NCBI GenBank assembly: GCA_016185435.1
Contig: JACPNN010000005.1
Location: 22,588-86,587, forward strand
From: Candidatus Aenigmatarchaeota archaeon
GTDB lineage: Archaea > Aenigmatarchaeota > Aenigmatarchaeia > QMZP01
Length of the DNA stretch: 64,000 bases
Direction: 5' to 3'
Positions 78 through 60,180 of this stretch are shown here, in pieces (positions within the stretch are counted from its first letter, which is position 1; each line of letters opens with the position of its first letter). The notes below the pieces were generated by a model. It did no database searches. It was not told the DNA's origin and saw only the letters and a list, made by a program, of their open reading frames with translations. The position numbers were made by a program, and so were the translations under genes.

Positions 78-1124
78 TCATAAGCCATCCACTGACAATT
101 TGCTGTACATCGGCCTATAATTCCCCTCCCTTCCGAACAATTCCATATCAATTCTGTTGTGCCTTGGGTTCAGCAGCCAGCCGTCCTCATACAGCATGCG
201 ATGCTGCCTCGAGGGAAAAACAAGCCTGACTGTTTTCCTGTTCGGCAGTTTTGGTTTTGAGAGAGTCGATTTCAAACCTGTTTTTTTTGCCATTGCCTCA
301 ACCTGCTCCATGAGCTGGCTGCGCTTGTCGGCCAGAGAAATGGAACGATTGCTTCTGTTTATACTTCCGCCTGCGGAAAGGCAGCCCATTATAAATCCAG
401 AGCCTTGCACCCCTGAGAAATCTATGCCAATCATATCCGGAAAACCAAGTTCACTATGCCAGTTTACAAGCCCTTGAGAAGAGACGACGTAATGCTTCGG
501 ATTTCTCTTGTCAGGCTCAAGCTTCAGGCCATATATCCTCCTGAATTCATTCTCCACATAATTCCTGTAAAACTCTTCATCGCCCCTTTTTCTCGAAAAT
601 ATCAGATTATATATTTTTTCCCTCATAATCACACAGGCACCAAAATATGTTATTCCCAGCATTATGGTTTCAGGAACGCCAAGAGCCTCAGGAATCCTTA
701 ATTCTTTCCTCAGGTCACTGTTGCTCCATTCTACATCCATCATGTCGAGGTTGCCTTTATATCCGCCGAACTTCTTCCGCAAATAATGGATTGGAGGGAA
801 GTCACTTTCTTCCTCATAGGCGACAAATTCCCTTACAATCCTGTCTCCGCGGAATTTTGCCTGCATGAGGCTGGATTGCCTGTCAACAAGCATTGCTATC
901 GCCGTGTTCGTTATATGGTCCTTTTTACCCTTGTATACATACATCTCCGCAGCCTTTATTATCCTTTCCTCTTCGGAAGCAGGAGAGAATATCGACTTCA
1001 CCTCTTTCCGGGTGAATCCGTCGGAAAGATAATACATTCTCCCTATATCTTGGCATCTGCGGTAAGCCTCTTCAGTCACGCTTATTCTGCCGTCCCTTCC
1101 TATCGGAGGCCTGTATTTTGTCAT
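78..1124 (-). CDS. hypothetical protein (348 aa), no family recognised
   Basis: Long uninterrupted ORF on the minus strand; no motif I can assign with confidence. Confidence 0.5.
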   Translation of the reverse strand: MTKYRPPIGRDGRISVTEEAYRRCQDIGRMYYLSDGFTRKEVKSIFSPASEEERIIKAAEMYVYKGKKDHITNTAIAMLVDRQSSLMQAKFRGDRIVREFVAYEEESDFPPIHYLRKKFGGYKGNLDMMDVEWSNSDLRKELRIPEALGVPETIMLGITYFGACVIMREKIYNLIFSRKRGDEEFYRNYVENEFRRIYGLKLEPDKRNPKHYVVSSQGLVNWHSELGFPDMIGIDFSGVQGSGFIMGCLSAGGSINRSNRSISLADKRSQLMEQVEAMAKKTGLKSTLSKPKLPNRKTVRLVFPSRQHRMLYEDGWLLNPRHNRIDMELFGREGNYRPMYSKLSVDGL

Positions 1125-24274: not shown

Positions 24275-24562
24275 GCCCCAGTAGCTCAGCCGGTGGAGCG
24301 TCACCTTGGTATAAACCCTTTTCTTTTTAAGAAAAAGAAAAGCGAATGGGAGACAGAAGCATATCAGCGGATATGCTTCATAACCAAACGTGGAAAAGAA
24401 AAATAAATGCAAAGGAAGAAGAAAATGATGTAAAACAAAAAGGTGAAGGCCGCGAGTTCAAATCTCCACCCTTTCTTTTGTAAAAGAAAGGGTAGGTTAT
24501 CCAAAGAAAACAGTTACAGAGAGTGAATATAAAATATCCGAGTGAACGTCTCGCCTGGGGCT
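24275..24562 (+). tRNA. tRNA-Thr(GGU) with two introns (24312..24440 at 37/38; 24464..24549 in/after the T-loop)
   Basis: Exons reconstruct a cloverleaf: acceptor gccccag/ctggggc, D-stem gctc/gagc, anticodon stem tcacc/ggtga with loop ttGGTa|a, T-arm gcgag-ttcaaat-ctcgc. All four stems pair perfectly only after removing the two inserts. CCA is not encoded. Confidence 0.6.
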
Positions 24563-40857: not shown

Positions 40858-41088
40858 TTTCCCCTTCCTCCGGAACCTCTCAAACACAGTCGACAAAACC
40901 TTTTATTGGTTTTATAAGCCCAAAAGGTTTTATCCAAAAACTGAGCCCTTCTACCGTCCTAATCCCTTCTGAAATCTCTGGAATACAGTCGACAGATCAA
41001 TCCTGTACTTGCCTTCGGCAAGCCTTATGACAAGCGGTTTCTGGGCGAACAGCTTGGTGACATCTATATTGTACTTGCCCGGTTTAAG
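40858..41088. repeat. long direct repeat copy 2 (overlaps the 3' end of the Zn-ribbon gene)
   Basis: See 39092..39384. Confidence 0.85.
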
Positions 41089-41355
41089 GACCCTGATGGC
41101 CTCGAGGTCCAGTATCACTGTTTCCTGGCCGGCCTCACTTTCCTCAGGCTCCTCCTCCTCCACTATCTCCCTTATGTCCTTCTCGATCGTTTCAATCTCC
41201 TGCTTGTTCAGCTTGAGCCTCTCCTGTTCCACAATCTCGATAAGGTCCTGCCTGACAAAGAAGAAGAACTTGCTGCCACATGAATCGCAGCCGTTAAGCA
41301 GATAAGGCGCATCATCAGGGTGTATCTTGCCGCACTTCGCGCATGTGTTGGGCAT
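40951..41355 (-). CDS. Zn-ribbon protein
   Basis: CAKCGK...CDSCGSK double CxxC. Confidence 0.5.
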   Translation of the reverse strand: MPNTCAKCGKIHPDDAPYLLNGCDSCGSKFFFFVRQDLIEIVEQERLKLNKQEIETIEKDIREIVEEEEPEESEAGQETVILDLEAIRVLKPGKYNIDVTKLFAQKPLVIRLAEGKYRIDLSTVFQRFQKGLGR

Positions 41356-41409
41356 ATTAAATATTGGGCAAAGGGAATATAAAGGGAAAACTGTTTCAGA
41401 ACTAAAACA

Positions 41410-41745
41410 CTAAACCTTCCTTTTTATCCCGATTTCCCCTTCACCCAAGAGCTCTATTTCCACTTTCTGACCTTCTTTGAAACCGATGCCTGCAGCTTCC
41501 TGCGGCAGTGTGACACCTATTGAATTGCCTATTCTCAATATCTTCCTGGTTGTTTTGATTTTCCTGGCCTCTTCCCTCAGCCTGAGCAGTTCTTTCGCTG
41601 TATCTAAAGGAAGCCCTGTATCTCCGCATTTTTCGCACACATTGGCGTTGATAAGGAAGCCCTCGATGAAAGCCTTCTGCACGTTGATTGTCCCTCCGCA
41701 CCTGCAGATGAGGCCTTTCCTCCTCAGATTTTTCATGTTTTCCAT
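41410..41745 (-). CDS. Zn-ribbon + AbrB/SpoVT-like domain protein (putative antitoxin/regulator)
   Basis: CRCGG...CEKCGD then ILRIGNSIGVTLPQEAAGIGFKEGQKVEIEL (swapped-hairpin). Confidence 0.5.
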   Translation of the reverse strand: MENMKNLRRKGLICRCGGTINVQKAFIEGFLINANVCEKCGDTGLPLDTAKELLRLREEARKIKTTRKILRIGNSIGVTLPQEAAGIGFKEGQKVEIELLGEGEIGIKRKV

Positions 41746-41746
41746 A

Positions 41747-42034
41747 TTATATCCTCCCTTCTTCCTTGATGATTGTAACTATTCTGATGAAATTTGGATG
41801 GAGACCGGCTATGACAGTGTATGTGGCGTTCTCCTTGCCGTAATAGAGCCTGAAGCATACATTCTGCCTTTTCTCATCGGATTTTTCAGGCACAGGCCTG
41901 CCCCTTCTTATGGTTTCCTCAGCCATGTCAATGTCAGCCGGTGTCAGGTTTTTATGCTTCAAGGCATGCAGACTGATGTCGATATACACTGTCTGCCTGT
42001 CATACCTCTGCAAGGCCTCCGGTATCCAATCCAT
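41747..42034 (-). CDS. small hypothetical protein, possible toxin partner
   Basis: Immediately upstream of and co-directional with the AbrB-like gene (1-nt gap). Confidence 0.35.
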   Translation of the reverse strand: MDWIPEALQRYDRQTVYIDISLHALKHKNLTPADIDMAEETIRRGRPVPEKSDEKRQNVCFRLYYGKENATYTVIAGLHPNFIRIVTIIKEEGRI

Positions 42035-42106
42035 TCCAATAATAATTGTGTTATAACAATATAAAGCTTTTGTTATAACAAAATCAGCACAAAAGAAGGA
42101 TAAAAA

Positions 42107-43603
42107 TCAGCTTTCAGGCACAGGGTCCACTATCCACCAGAGCTCGTTGCCCAGCCTTGCGCCATAGGCTATTTTTCTGTCGTCTGAACTGAAGACAGGA
42201 TCTCCAATCCAATCATATGGTCTGCCCTCATTGTGGCCGACGACAACTAGCCATTTATCTTCTTTTTTGGCTTTATATGCAACAATTCTGTCATCATGAC
42301 TGAAAATAGGATAACTCACTTCATCATATGGTTTGCTTTCTTTGTTTCCAATCACTACGAATTGCTTTCTCCCCTGTTTTACACTGTAAGCTATTGTATC
42401 TCCATCATGACTGTACACAGGAAAAGATACCTCATCATATATTCCTTCATACTGTTTACCCTCTATACCATCAAAGACTATAAACATTTTTCCTGCTCTC
42501 CCTGCTTTATAAGCAAGTTTCTGACCTTTTGGGCCAAACTCAAAATCCCATATAAGATCATATGGTTCACTTTCTTTGCTCTCAACTACTATTATCGAAC
42601 TGCCGTTCTTGCTAGCTGCATAAGCCACTTTTTTGCTGTCAGCACTGAAGACAGGATCTGATACCCAATCATATCGTTTCTCTTCTTTTTCTCCTATGAC
42701 TACAAATCCTGCTTCTTCTTCCCTAAAATTGTTTTGCCTTTGACGAACCATATAGGCAACATGACGGCTGTCCGGGCTGAAGACAGGCCATGATACAGAA
42801 TCATAGGGTTTGCCTTCTTTTCCTTCAACGACAATGAACCCCTTCTCCCCTTCTGCAGCCTGATAAGCAATTTTTTTGCCGTCTGGGCTGAATACTGGGT
42901 TTACAACCCAACGATAATTCTTGCCTTCCTTCCCCCCAACGACTACAAACTGATTGCCTCCTTTGCTTGCCACAAAGGCCAGTTTGTTGTCCTTGCTGGA
43001 AACAACTTGTGACACATAATCATATAAGTTTCCCTCATTTTCCTCTGTTACAACACGCCACTTACCTCCCTCCTCTGCGATATAAGCCATTTTTTGTCCA
43101 TCTGAGATGAATAGGCGATAGAAGGGGGCCACTATGAAATCATATGGCTTCCCTTCTTTGGATCCCGTAATCACAAATGACTTATTGCCTCTAAAAGCTC
43201 TATATACTATTTGCCCGGCCGGGCTGAATACCAAACTGTCTACCATATTGTAAATGTTGCCTTCCCTATTCCCTACAACAACAAACCATTCCCCGCTCTT
43301 ATTCACACTATAAGCTACCTCCCTACCATCAGGGCTAAAAACAAGTTTGGTTAAGTTATATCCATAGGGAATAGTAGCCAGCTTCGTTGTCTTCAGATTA
43401 AGATCCAATATCAGCTGTTGTCGGTTTTCTGGATTTGCAGCACTCTCCGGAGATGCAGCTTGGTCGTCTGAGCCTTGGTCTCCAGAAGACCTGAATTCAG
43501 AGGGAATTATATAGCTTCCTGCAACCAAAACCGCTATCAATAAAATAACTGCTAGTACACTTTTGCTTTCCATTTTGACTATTTGTCCGCTTCTGCTAAT
43601 CAA
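42107..43603 (-). CDS. secreted PD40/TolB-like beta-propeller repeat protein
   Basis: Signal-anchor, then >8 repeats of FSPDG(K/R)xIAY (PD40 motif). Confidence 0.8.
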   Translation of the reverse strand: MISRSGQIVKMESKSVLAVILLIAVLVAGSYIIPSEFRSSGDQGSDDQAASPESAANPENRQQLILDLNLKTTKLATIPYGYNLTKLVFSPDGREVAYSVNKSGEWFVVVGNREGNIYNMVDSLVFSPAGQIVYRAFRGNKSFVITGSKEGKPYDFIVAPFYRLFISDGQKMAYIAEEGGKWRVVTEENEGNLYDYVSQVVSSKDNKLAFVASKGGNQFVVVGGKEGKNYRWVVNPVFSPDGKKIAYQAAEGEKGFIVVEGKEGKPYDSVSWPVFSPDSRHVAYMVRQRQNNFREEEAGFVVIGEKEEKRYDWVSDPVFSADSKKVAYAASKNGSSIIVVESKESEPYDLIWDFEFGPKGQKLAYKAGRAGKMFIVFDGIEGKQYEGIYDEVSFPVYSHDGDTIAYSVKQGRKQFVVIGNKESKPYDEVSYPIFSHDDRIVAYKAKKEDKWLVVVGHNEGRPYDWIGDPVFSSDDRKIAYGARLGNELWWIVDPVPES

Positions 43604-43962
43604 GCGCTCATCTCCAAAAACAACGCCTTCGGCTGCCTCTTTATCCTCTTGATGAGCTTGGCCGGGCCAATCACTGTCATGCCCCTTTTCCTGCCCACCA
43701 CGGTCTCGACAACCCTGTTCCTTATCCTGGCCAGTATGCCAGCCTCCTCTGCCGGAGTGAACTCCATGCTGCCCAGCTCTATGCCCTTGAACTTGTCTGA
43801 AATCTTTTTCATGGTTTCCTCTATCAGCTCTGTCTCCTGCTCTGCAGAAAGCTTGGCGTCTATCATGATTATCGTGTCCTTCTCTATCTCATCCAATATA
43901 TGCTCCACCTTCTTCTCTTCCACCTTCTCGTAAGGGATGAATTTTATCCTGAGCTTTGTCAT
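43600..43962 (-). CDS. small conserved archaeal protein (GTPase-associated; DUF2073-like guess)
   Basis: Translationally coupled (overlap) with the upstream GTPase gene. Confidence 0.4.
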   Translation of the reverse strand: MTKLRIKFIPYEKVEEKKVEHILDEIEKDTIIMIDAKLSAEQETELIEETMKKISDKFKGIELGSMEFTPAEEAGILARIRNRVVETVVGRKRGMTVIGPAKLIKRIKRQPKALFLEMSA

Positions 43963-44629: not shown

Positions 44630-44685
44630 TAGTTTATTTAGGCCGAATCCATTTATTAAGCTGAGTCAAGGAAAATATATATTGA

Positions 44686-44900
44686 GGGGTCATGAGGTTA
44701 ATGGCAACCTGGCGGGCTCCAGGCCAGCCTTTCTTTCTCGAAAGAAAGGCTAGGTTACCCAAAGAAAGGAAATACAGATGTTATGCTCGGGAGCATTGAG
44801 CCGACGAGGGAGCTGCCATATGCGGCGAGCATGATGACAGATACCCAAGGCTGTGAAAGGAAGACACCCGTACATGGGAGTTCGAATCTCCCTGACCCCA
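44686..44900 (+). tRNA. tRNA-Trp(CCA) with a 143-nt intron at 37/38 (44723..44865)
   Basis: Acceptor ggggtca/tgacccc, D-stem aggt/acct, anticodon stem gcggg/cccgt with loop ctCCAg|a, T-arm gggag-ttcgaat-ctccc. The intron contains the palindrome cctttctttctcgaaagaaagg and an ATGATGA (box C-like) motif. Confidence 0.65.
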
Positions 44901-45048
44901 TTGCGCACCCCTTTCTTTTAGAAAAAGAAAGGGTACCGCCCTATCCAAAGAAAACCAATTACCTCCACTGAACTTGACATTTCCTGCTCGATATCGGTAA
45001 TTCCTTTTTCTGGATAACCTACCCTCTTTTTTGGAAAAAGAGGGTGGT

Positions 45049-45082
45049 GTACATGGGAGTTCGAATCTCCCTGACCCCATTC
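45049..45082 (+). pseudogene. orphan duplicate of the tRNA-Trp 3' half (34 nt identical to 44870..44903), preceded by an intron-type palindrome
   Basis: gtacatgggagttcgaatctccctgaccccatt repeated. A third partial copy (tctccccattgcgca) lies at 45146..45158. Confidence 0.7.
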
Positions 45083-45573
45083 CCAGAAGGGAGGTATCCC
45101 TTCTATGGTTTACTTCCCTCTGAATACTAATATCAATCTTGATCTCCCCATTGCGCATTCCCTACGCAGAGGGAAGGTATTCCCTCTACCGTCCTACTCC
45201 CTTCAGATTACAAGTATCGCCACCTGTAATCCCTTTCTTTGCCGAACGGGCTTTCTTTTGGAAAGAAAGCCTGTAAAGGTCTACCGCTCTACCCCCAAAA
45301 GAAAAGGCAATACTAATCAGAGAGGTGTAGTATAGGCTTTTCTTCCAGAGAAAAGCCAATTGGAGACAGAAGCATATCAGTGGATATGCTTCATAACCAA
45401 ACGGGCAAAAGAAGGATATACCAATGATAAGCATATCCTTCAGTTGCTGGGGGCTGATAACACTTGGCCAGCCTGTGACAGTGAAGTAAAGACTTCAAAA
45501 AAGTTGGCTGACCAAGTGAAGGGCCCGCAGAGGCCCTTATTGGGATACCTCCCCTCTAGGGAAAGAAAGGCAG

Positions 45574-46032
45574 TTATACTTTCTTCCGCTTCTTGAAATC
45601 TTGCCACAGGAGGCTGAGTTTTGCCTCAATTCTGCCCAGCTCTATCAGAACAGCCCCTGTAAGCAATGTATCCAGGCTGATGTCGGCAGGAGAATGTATC
45701 ACGCCCAAAGCCTTGAGCAATACGACTGCAACAACTGTGCCTATAATGCCCCATGCCAGTATCCTGAGCGCAAAGTCAACCTTATCAGATACCATTCAGC
45801 CCCTTTCCATCCTGTCAAAGGCAAACGCAGCAGAAAGGCCTGCTGCAAAGCCTGCTGCAATGCTCGGCAGCAACTCAAATCCCGCGATGACCATAGCAAC
45901 TGCCACAAGCACGAATACGGCCGCACCCGCAAGAAAATTCTTGTCATCCTTGGACACCATAAATAATAATATTCGATCAAGCCATAAAAATCTTTTTCGG
46001 AAAAGACTTAACAAAAGCAGTACAGACTGCAA
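45574..46032 (-). CDS. two small hydrophobic proteins (73 aa and 78 aa) adjacent to the pilus locus
   Basis: ORFs 45574..45795 and 45796..46032, each with predicted TM helices. Confidence 0.35.
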
Positions 46033-55263: not shown

Positions 55264-55421
55264 CAGGCCCGACGGGATTTTCGTCTTGGGTATTTTCCAG
55301 ATAGATGTTTGTATTTCCTTTTTCTGGATACCCTACCCTCTTTTTTGGAAAAAGAGGGTGGTGTCGAACCCGTATCCCCTGCTCCGGAGGCAGGTGTTCT
55401 ATCCGACTGAACTACGGGCCT
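55264..55421 (-). tRNA. tRNA-Arg(CCG) with an 86-nt T-loop intron (55279..55364)
   Basis: On the minus strand: acceptor aggcccg/cgggcct, D gttc/gaac, anticodon stem cctgc/gcagg with loop ctCCGga, T-stem acggg/cccgt, and T-loop ttcga|at restored only after excising the insert. The insert begins caccaccctctttttccaaaaaagagggtagggtatccagaaaaagg. Confidence 0.5.
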
Positions 55422-55473: not shown

Positions 55474-55762
55474 GCGGGGGTTCCCGAGAGGCCAAAGGGG
55501 CGGGACTTAAGAAAACCTTTTCTTTTCCAAAAAGAAAAGGTTTTATCCAAAAGAAAACAAATGAAAAACAAGCGCTTGCGGAAAAGAAAACAACATACAG
55601 AAATCTTAAGTATTGAGCGAAAGCTGTGAAATAAGAGATCCCGTGACTTAGTGTCTTCGCAGGTTCGATAGGCTTTCTTTTCAGAAAAGAAAGCCCATAC
55701 GGCAAAGAAAACATAATACAAAAACTGAAACAATAACCAGAACGAAAATCCTGCCTCCCGCA
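55474..55762 (+). tRNA. tRNA-Leu(UAA) with two introns (55512..55637 at 37/38; 55669..55747 in the T-loop)
   Basis: Acceptor gcggggg/ctcccgc (one G-U), D ccc/ggg with long D-loop, anticodon stem cggga/tcccg with loop ctTAAg|a, long variable arm (tgacttagtgtcttc), T-arm gcagg-ttcga|at-cctgc. Confidence 0.6.
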
Positions 55763-59456: not shown

Positions 59457-59495
59457 TTAAGCCTTTAAAAGCCAGCACATATTAATCTTATCCAT

Positions 59496-59512
59496 GGCCT
59501 CGTTGGTGTAAT
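59496..59512 (+). pseudogene. orphan duplicate of the first 17 nt of tRNA-His, fused to an intron-type palindrome module
   Basis: ggcctcgttggtgtaat is identical to 59617..59633, followed directly by ccgccctctttttccaaaaaagagggcaggttgcccagaaaaagg. Confidence 0.6.
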
Positions 59513-59616
59513 CCGCCCTCTTTTTCCAAAAAAGAGGGCAGGTTGCCCAGAAAAAGGAATTACATGTACTAAACATGCAATTTCAACTAATACGAGACCT
59601 GAACAATAAGGCATAT

Positions 59617-60072
59617 GGCCTCGTTGGTGTAATGGAAGCACAGAAGCCTGTGGGCCACCCTCTTTTTCCAAAAAAGAGGGTAGGATATCCAGAAAAAGGC
59701 AATGCAGATGTCGTAAGTAATAACAAATTACGGCATGGCTGCTGGGGGTTAATAAGGGCTGCTCATCATGAGTGATGGCATGCCTTCGCAAGAGCGAAGC
59801 GCACCGCTGGAGGCCCCTTTCGTATAAGCTCAGCAGGAAGCAAGGGGTACTATGGGGATGCGCAGCCTTTGGCTGGCATGCCTTCGCTTCAGCGAAGTGC
59901 ACAGCATGTCCCCATGCAGAAAGCTTCTAGCCTGGGTTCAAATATAGGCTTTTCTTTTGAAAAGAAAAGCCCATTCGGCAAAAGAAACATAATACATCTG
60001 TTGAATGGGTCGATAGCCCATTCGGCAAAGAAAACAGATACCGGATGTATATTGAAAATCCCAGACGAGGCC
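59617..60072 (+). tRNA. tRNA-His(GUG) with two introns (59654..59921 at 37/38, ~268 nt; 59944..60059 in/after the T-loop)
   Basis: G-1 paired to C73 (His identity element). Acceptor gcctcgt/acgaggc, D gtgt/gcac, anticodon stem gaagc/gcttc with loop ctGTGg|a, T-arm ctggg-ttcaa|at-cccag. All stems are perfect only after removing both inserts. Confidence 0.55.
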
Positions 60073-60180
60073 CATTCTTTTTTTAGCTGCATTACGAAAA
60101 TTTCTCTATCCTATGGTTGTAAAATTCTTTTGCTATCCTGATGCATTACATTTATTATACATAAATACTACATATGTAAT

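Follow-up and report, generated by a model that had tools for sequence, protein, structure and literature searches.

Repeated tRNA-Trp 3′ ends as probable junction repeats of intron-type modules in an Aenigmarchaeota genome

A 64,000-nt stretch of the genome of Candidatus Aenigmatarchaeota archaeon (GCA_016185435.1, contig JACPNN010000005.1, positions 22,588-86,587 of the forward strand; hereafter the window) contains a tRNA-Trp gene whose 3′ end recurs twice, in part, in the sequence directly behind it. In all probability (about 80%), these extra tRNA ends are non-functional junction repeats, made when modules of the kind found in the introns of this genome’s tRNA genes were inserted or duplicated behind the gene. 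The window proteins OapB, OapC, and an Era-like GTPase, together with their homologues, place the host in Candidatus Aenigmarchaeota of the DPANN lineage. Our evidence base comprises the 64 kb of the host genome and three related genomes: L013 (GCA_053536595.1), which is syntenic at the locus and has a GTPase 95% identical to that of the window; L016 (GCA_964372825.1), in which the protein beside tRNA-His is 88% identical; and L015, also from Aenigmarchaeota but more distant (74% GTPase identity).

The repeated tRNA ends and the modules between them

The longest repeat is an exact 33-nt direct repeat, GTACATGGGAGTTCGAATCTCCCTGACCCCATT, which corresponds to tRNA-Trp positions 42 to 73 plus TT (copies A and B in Table 1). 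Chance matches for such a 33-mer in shuffled sequence amount to 0. An earlier note on this DNA, made from the sequence alone, had given the repeat as 34 nt long; the exact repeat at 45049 is real, but it measures 33 nt and ends at 45081. The intron-type palindrome that the same note saw directly before copy B is also present, with a stem of 12 bp at 45019-47, and belongs to an intron-type head in inverted orientation. The third copy described at 45146 exists as well, but its exact part is shorter than described: it is limited to a 12-mer, CCCCATTGCGCA, which is also found at 44896-44907 and consists of the last 5 tRNA bases and 7 trailer bases (copy C). Similarity upstream of copy C is weak (18/23 over 45135-45157). 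Copy C is nevertheless real, because the orthologous place in L013 matches the tRNA end at 18/18 positions (AATCTCCCTGACCCCATT). Copy C equals this 18-mer minus 6 nt on the left, and 45146-45162 is 94% identical to L013 4044-4028. Judged by its flanks, copy C is a hybrid of two older repeats: on the left it has the context of the downstream copy in L013, and on the right that of the native trailer and M2 start, which is what unequal crossing-over within CCCCATT is expected to yield.

The duplication cannot be put down to the assembly of this window. Independent Logan contigs from other samples break at precisely this 33-mer (at 44899 and 44902), as is expected of a k=31 assembly graph at a repeat with two contexts. 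Neither were the tRNA ends copied from cDNA of mature tRNA, because trailer or leader bases are present in the copies and CCA is absent; the trailer bases (TT, GCGCA) are genomic. A simple tandem duplication (period 179 nt) was ruled out, given that what follows B is not a repeat of what follows A. A degenerate tRNA in 45160-45600 was also considered and found to be unsupported.

The DNA between and behind the copies is closely tied to the tRNA introns of the window. Five tRNA genes in four intergenic regions (Table 1) each contain one or two introns, eight in total, which are 79-268 nt long and located at positions 37/38 and 59/60. All eight introns fit the bulge-helix-bulge (BHB) geometry (helix h of 5-6 bp; central helix H of 4/4, or 3/4 in Trp_i1 and Thr_i1; outer helix h′ mostly weak), and 5/5 tRNAs are recognized after manual splicing. 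Every intron opens, 2-8 nt past its 5′ splice site, with a head of ~57 nt, which is composed of a 10-16-bp hairpin with a pyrimidine-rich first arm (e.g., CCCTCTTTTT/AAAAAGAGGG), a short linker, a purine tract, and A(A/T)TAC. A covariance model of the head (R1, scores in bits) gave strong matches nowhere in the window except at the four tRNA loci, and it also matched the orthologous loci in two relatives. Among the Arg, His, and Trp loci, heads are 85-98% identical, and it is the heads only, not whole units, that recur. Heads are also found outside exons: M2a, the inverted M3, a two-way head at 45223-45316, one inside a tRNA-His 5′ duplication, and a weak one behind tRNA-Arg.

The tRNA-Trp trailer is a tandem array of units; in each, a copied tRNA terminus comes first and a head-plus-tail module after it. 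Unit 1 consists of A, GCGCA, M2a, tail X, and the inverted M3; unit 2 consists of B, CCC, a purine-first hairpin, and a U-type tail (U1); and unit 3 consists of C, TT, CCC, and a paralogous hairpin and tail (U2), followed by M2b. The insert between A and B is 146 nt long and is made up of two well-formed members of the head family plus tails, the two terminal heads being of one family and ~60% alike. M3 is 98% identical to the head of a tRNA-Arg intron ~10 kb away (blastn, 47/48 to 55315-55362), and the identity extends by 2 nt (GT) into copy B. The segment 44860-44964 is 89% identical to L013. The M2b hairpin doubles as a minus-strand head at 45223-45277 (R1, 55.1 bits on the minus strand), which is nearly identical to the head of a T-loop intron in tRNA-Leu of L016.

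Table 1 Features of the tRNA-Trp locus and other tRNA genes in the window
Feature	Position	Strand	Remarks
tRNA-Thr-GGT	24275-24562	+	
TTTATTAA, likely TATA box	44652-44659	+	~30 nt upstream of tRNA-Trp; read from sequence; kept in L013
tRNA-Trp-CCA	44686-44900	+	
tRNA-Trp(CCA) exon 1, positions 1-37	44686-44722	+	ARAGORN calls the spliced gene; 100% identical in L013
Head module of tRNA-Trp intron	44722-44778	+	R1 52.4 bits
tRNA-Trp intron, 143 nt, at 37/38	44723-44865	+	BHB: h 5 bp, H 3/4, h′ weak
tRNA-Trp exon 2, positions 38-73	44866-44900	+	CCA not encoded
Copy A of 33-mer	44870-44902	+	within the working tRNA-Trp gene, plus TT
Trailer GCGCA and head M2a (hairpin 44909-44933)	44903-44965	+	R1 48.8 bits; also directly behind tRNA-Trp in L013
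Segment X, module tail	44963-44994	+	start resembles U-type tails; CACTGAACTT stretch also in L013; homology short, by eye
Head M3, inverted relative to tRNA	44994-45050	-	R1 62.8 bits
Copy B of 33-mer, non-functional partial copy	45049-45081	+	no BHB; absent from L013
Unit U1: CCC, purine-first hairpin (45085-45104), U-type tail	45082-45145	+	tail 45111-45137 93% identical to L013 3968-3942
Copy C, exact 12-mer	45146-45157	+	
Unit U2, paralogue of U1 (hairpin 45168-45187 and tail)	45158-45231	+	
M2b, second M2-type head	45243-45316	+	R1 22.7 bits (+); 45275-45313 90% identical to L013 M2
Orphan copy of tRNA-Thr intron 1 head/body, no flanking exons	45332-45420	+	65 nt, 92% identity to 24336-24400
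tRNA-Arg-CCG	55265-55420	-	
tRNA-Leu-TAA	55474-55762	+	
tRNA-His 5′ duplication, 19 nt (positions -3 to 16)	59494-59512 and 59615-59633	+	flanks 102-nt head module, head 58.8 bits
tRNA-His-GTG	59617-60073	+	

Copy B is most probably non-functional. Its homology to the tRNA begins at position 42, with positions 38-41 missing, and bases 39-43 in its context read GTGGT, which cannot pair with the GCGGG of the tRNA-Trp anticodon stem. No BHB was found for the interval from A to B in 34 equivalent registers, when H of 4/4 and h and h′ of at least 2 bp were demanded; the only 4/4 registers in this interval stem from internal palindromes. While similar introns in different tRNA genes and positions each sit in a BHB context, copy B does not. 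ARAGORN did not accept exon 1 joined to the copy B context as a tRNA, the 64-kb window holds one matching 5′ half and no second one, and no TATA-like box was read in the sequence upstream of copy B.

Turnover at the locus in relatives and the parallel case at tRNA-His

The comparison with related strains that the earlier note had advised can be made with L013, which lacks copy B. There, the genes flanking tRNA-Trp are syntenic and exon 1 is identical, the intron has diverged, and the gene is followed by the same GCGCA and M2, a U-type tail, and the 18/18 copy of the tRNA end. Window segment 44963-45110 (148 nt, comprising X, M3, B, and the purine-first hairpin) is missing. Because L013 lacks these four pieces yet has the surrounding M2 and U-type tail, copy B lies inside an older M2 unit as part of a four-piece patchwork, and not at the tRNA as a fresh right-hand attachment junction (attR). 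Two further copies of CCCCATT are present; L013 has four copies vs three in the window, and all four in the 10.9 kb of L013 fall within 220 nt. Behind tRNA-Trp of L013, at 3940-3800(-), the filler is unlike that of the window: inverted ATGGGG copies and GC-rich hairpins (GGGGACATGCTGTCCC, GGGGGCATGCTGCCCCC) alternate there with three further CCCCATTAT motifs.

The number and composition of the units behind tRNA-Trp vary among close relatives, and the middle of the tRNA-Trp intron cannot be aligned between the window (44723-44865) and L013 (4190-4075(-)). Given that orthologous introns differ radically while exons are nearly identical and neighboring proteins are 88-95% identical, introns turn over very fast, and the turnover of modules is fast as well. 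In L015, the tRNA-Trp gene (1310-1165(-)) contains two introns, both short: the first lies in the anticodon loop, and the second, in the T-loop, has a GC-rich hairpin. This gene has neither heads nor end repeats; the T-loop intron in tRNA-Trp may be ancestral. Variation may also exist closer to the host itself: Logan contig L004 follows the window colinearly except that exactly 44903-45081 (179 nt) is missing, and represents either a deletion allele or a low-coverage path of the k=31 assembly. If the allele is real, its lack of exactly one repeat plus the insert fits a deletion between A and B.

A comparable arrangement is found at the 5′ end of tRNA-His, where the duplicated bases and the head module that they flank form a unit of 121 nt (Table 1). 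L016 has an uninterrupted tRNA-His 5′ site (3250-3025(-)), that is, a clean empty site. Because a TATA-like TTTAAAA is located upstream of the first tRNA-His copy, transcription of the working gene probably runs through the module. The 37/38 intron of tRNA-His differs between the two genomes as well, with 268 nt in the window (59641-59910) vs 66 nt in L016 (3200-3140(-)). Moreover, the His introns contain duplications of the form X-Y-X: a 32-nt repeat at 98-nt spacing (59776-59905) and a 22-nt repeat at 47-nt spacing (59968-60036). The latter, in the 59/60 intron, is absent from L016, and its insert and duplicated piece form a new 7-bp hairpin. Partial duplications of the X-Y-X type are therefore found inside introns too, a setting to which the logic of attachment (att) sites does not apply.

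Mechanisms of module insertion

How the modules came to be inserted is less certain than the nature of the repeats. We propose, at what we regard as even odds, that homology- and microhomology-driven copy-and-paste was at work, together with unequal crossing-over. Template switching would take place during replication at the hairpin-rich heads, and a switch that re-enters upstream of its exit point would copy the adjacent tRNA end again. Unequal crossing-over or deletion between direct repeats would further alter the array. The survivors would be events that leave one intact copy of the gene, or events within the gene whose product can still be spliced at a BHB. The youngest product would be the perfect copy B, which would have arrived with the inverted tRNA-Arg-type head and been joined at the 2-nt GT overlap. 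A dedicated integrase would be unnecessary. We favor this mechanism because of the patchwork make-up of the array, the inverted head of chromosomal origin, the hybrid copy C, the variable length of the repeats (7, 12-18, 19, 22, 32, and 33 nt), and the same pattern inside introns. It is close to the recombination between intron modules that the earlier note had offered as an alternative to integration.

Several points weigh against this reading. Donors are known only for the Arg-type head, M2, and the U paralogues, and not for X or the His_up tail. The comparison has only three related genomes and 64 kb of the host genome behind it, and L004 is possibly an assembly path and not a real allele. 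A site-specific recombinase would also be expected to use one tRNA-end site repeatedly in two lineages. That the repeats always reach just past the gene end is classic att behavior, for which a selection filter may be an alternative explanation. Lastly, the 2-nt overlap is weak evidence for microhomology.

The att-like form of the repeats calls for an examination of mobile elements. Typical att junctions are direct repeats of a tRNA 3′ end that extend a few bases past the gene, flank inserted DNA, and leave the gene intact. Direct repeats of a 3′ or 5′ part of a tRNA with the gene intact are what we observe at tRNA-Trp (33 nt) and tRNA-His (19 nt), and to this extent the integrase signature claimed in the earlier note fits; the integrase itself, a free element, and a position of copy B at the tRNA are what the claim lacks. 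None of the 36 window open reading frames (ORFs) scanned encodes an integrase, transposase, or reverse transcriptase; a 125-aa ORF across the insert was outside that scan. This ORF (44781-45158(-)) crosses repeats and hairpins, no gene with its product is on record, and it is taken as a chance frame. Between the repeats there is no integrase, integrase fragment, or mobile gene, the 146-nt insert being accounted for by two heads and their tails. A free virus or plasmid with the corresponding attP site was not found in IMG/VR, INPHARED, or PLSDB, collections in which DPANN mobile elements are poorly covered: the 31-mer of the repeat and the module hairpin had no exact match in IMG/VR, and a 459-nt query (44862-45320) had no blastn match in INPHARED or PLSDB. 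Among genome contigs, a 25-mer matched only distant low-GC DPANN tRNAs, in a single copy each; the module hairpin matched one irrelevant gut contig in metagenomes; and look-ups of spurious ORFs across the repeats and of the protein neighboring tRNA-His returned nothing. The relatives examined have no large insert.

The main alternative invokes miniature att-bearing elements, and we regard it as possible but clearly the lesser prospect. In this scenario, non-autonomous units with a tRNA-end attP were inserted serially, by tandem accretion, through an integrase encoded elsewhere, and the 33-, 18-, and 12-nt repeats are cores of attL and attR sites. Such elements would explain why the repeats span the tRNA end plus 2-7 trailer bases with the gene intact, why units are stacked head-to-tail with CCCCATT at each end or start in both the window and L013, and why the four CCCCATT copies of L013 are confined to so short a segment. 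The possible precise-loss allele L004 and the tRNA-His site, filled here and empty in L016, are also in their favor, and there is precedent for tRNA fragments and intron gain via integrating elements (PMC3293823; PMC9897764). On the other hand, neither an integrase among the scanned ORFs nor an attP-bearing virus or plasmid in the collections searched was found, copy B lies within the older M2 unit and not at the tRNA, one of the modules stands in inverted orientation and corresponds to a chromosomal intron head, partial duplications of a similar kind are present within introns and away from any tRNA end, and tRNA-His would require a matching attP of its own.

A related conjecture, which we put forward as doubtful, is that the heads are previously undescribed small non-autonomous mobile elements specialized on tRNA genes in Aenigmarchaeota. 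If so, those landing within a gene would survive only where BHB splicing can remove them, and would create introns, while those landing at gene ends would duplicate the terminus. The Trp and His duplications and the filled and empty sites would then be footprints of archaeal tRNA intron gain in progress.

We consider it improbable that a large integrase-bearing virus or plasmid once separated the repeats and subsequently lost nearly all of its sequence by deletion. The geometry resembles that of SSV- and pNOB8-type integration, with a 33-nt core that reaches from the 3′ strand of the anticodon stem to the gene end (PMC3293823). However, what is left is not a random remnant but two intact heads of the type common to chromosomal introns, no integrase fragment was found in the insert, the flanking genes are conserved and syntenic in L013, and there is no viral or plasmid match in the collections searched. 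The lost element that the earlier note had supposed between the repeats is, consequently, unsupported.

Hardly better placed, and by our estimate marginally less probable, is RNA-mediated mobility, in which reverse splicing or ligation would be followed by reverse transcription and recombination, with exon ends dragged along. The modules are genuine BHB introns common to different tRNAs, and the mechanism of archaeal intron transposition is described as undetermined (PMC4090602). Against this route stand the head that is inverted with respect to any tRNA transcript, duplicated ends without a BHB, duplicates that include leader or trailer bases, and the lack of a reverse transcriptase among the window ORFs scanned.

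Last, shared 3′ halves of tRNAs occur in Nanoarchaeum and Caldivirga, and a free-standing tRNA 3′ portion adjoining intron-like sequence resembles split, tri-split, and permuted archaeal tRNA genes; copy B differs from these in having neither positions 38-41 nor a BHB-forming leader, a promoter, or a partner 5′ half. Although copy B is 100% identical to the 3′ part of the working tRNA-Trp, and DPANN genomes often carry undetected disrupted tRNAs (PMC5829648), these differences, the unpaired GTGGT, and its absence from L013 and possibly from one population allele make it very improbable that copy B serves as 3′ exon or 3′ half in a second tRNA, whether split or alternatively spliced, the case that the earlier note had named as decisive against its own reading.

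Comparison with known systems and other features of the locus

Partial tRNA copies beside tRNA genes are a known scar, and tRNA fragments as scars of integration are widespread (PMC9897764); at the tRNA-Trp locus, the scar material is the genome’s own family of large-intron modules. The form of the tRNA-end repeats matches SSV- and pNOB8-type att duplications, from which the locus differs in its 146-nt non-coding insert of chromosomal intron-type modules, in the nesting of the copies, and in that no integrase or attP donor was found in the searches above. The closest case is tRNA-Thr of Caldiarchaeum subterraneum, where a 1.8-kb insert with a recombinase gene, a tRNA fragment, and intron gain are found together (Sugahara et al. 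2012, PMC3293823). There, too, related genomes differ by an insertion between tRNA fragment and gene, and a 5′ fragment is duplicated as at tRNA-His, but the inserts described here are gene-less, 100-150 nt long, and derived from the intron family.

Near-identical introns that occupy unrelated tRNAs, both at 37/38 and at non-canonical sites (59/60, for example), are also known from Thermoproteales, where their spread is thought to occur at the DNA level (2010 study, as reported through PMC4090602). As far as that account goes, the Aenigmarchaeota introns share with them the similarity among unrelated tRNAs and the positions 37/38 and 59/60, and differ in belonging to a DPANN lineage, in being 4-10 times longer, in the ~57-nt hairpin head, and in having extra-exonic copies in both orientations with duplicated exon ends.

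Gene-less, att-bounded units that stand in tandem at a tRNA-type site and can be removed by recombination between repeats recall cis-mobilizable elements (CIMEs) and their tandem accretion in streptococci (for the context of integrative mobilizable elements, see PMC5357655). Those elements are bacterial, kb-sized, and demonstrably mobilized by a known integrase, whereas the Aenigmarchaeota inserts measure 100-150 nt and no integrase was found among the ORFs scanned. Short, non-coding, hairpin-rich, multicopy sequences are also typical of miniature inverted-repeat transposable elements, and the A-B insert has a family member at either end, inverted with respect to each other. Yet we find neither the terminal inverted repeats, fixed-length target site duplications, and many full-length copies of such elements at these loci nor a transposase family; the flanking repeats vary from 7 to 33 nt, heads alone are repeated, and they are restricted to tRNA genes.

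The locus thus differs from known systems in its phylum, in the length of its introns and their conserved head, in having gene-less inserts of 100-150 nt from the intron family, and in their tandem nesting. How archaeal tRNA introns are gained is stated to be unsettled (PMC4090602), and close relatives that differ by modules, intron content, and exon-end duplications offer a tractable natural system in which to study the spread of BHB introns in archaea.

The locus also carries a practical warning, namely that default tRNA finders overlook intron-split tRNA genes in this lineage: of the five tRNA genes in the 64 kb, none was recovered by ARAGORN with default settings or by Rfam at gathering thresholds. 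ARAGORN accepts tRNA-Trp only once it is spliced. With the intron option, it returned a false tRNA-Trp model that joins exon 1 to copy B and uses the hairpin as a variable arm; this model was discarded because it has a poor anticodon stem and exon 2 in fact lies at 44866.

The TTTATTAA upstream of tRNA-Trp is probably its promoter element, and the M2 head, 8 nt behind the gene, may act as its terminator. Oligo-T is an archaeal termination signal, and because runs of 4-6 T are present on the transcribed strand in intron heads inside tRNA genes (e.g., 45022-45032, 55514-55526, and 59516-59525), read-through of these introns needs explaining. The purine tract of the heads, ~6-15 nt past the hairpin, resembles the purine arm of the hairpin and co-varies with it between copies (e.g., 44726-44778, 55333-55364(-), and 59513-59566). 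In a test for a triplex-type mirror repeat as opposed to a direct repeat, which would suggest an alternative hairpin, longest-match scores were 8.1 vs 7.0 for own vs cross and 8.1 vs 7.4 for mirror vs direct, a difference too small to support a claim in such low-complexity sequence.

The tRNA-Trp intron of Haloferax serves as a C/D guide RNA. The tRNA-Trp intron of the window has a box C-like ATGATGA at 44829-35 and a weak SNORD-like Rfam match over 44826-44884 (E ~0.9), and a search of the intron for a C/D guide gave no convincing box D or guide. A weak sR11-like match (E 2.8) is located at 45420-45515 in the trailer region. Two Logan contigs, L011 and L012, which come from two samples and run from the downstream genes, both end at ~45524, 50 nt past a 73-aa ORF; this suggests further repeated or variable sequence near 45524.

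Elsewhere in the window, a 348-aa ORF at 78-1124(-), beside the cysteinyl-tRNA synthetase gene, has a weak LAGLIDADG_3 match (E 7e-6) and may be a free-standing or degenerate homing-endonuclease-like gene. The genes for OapC and OapB (40951-43962) flank a palindrome with a 12-bp stem, TGTTATAACA...TGTTATAACA, at 42049-42080. Because these origin-associated proteins and the palindrome are nearby, the tRNA-Trp locus may be close to a replication origin, a proximity that could bear on replication-based rearrangements.

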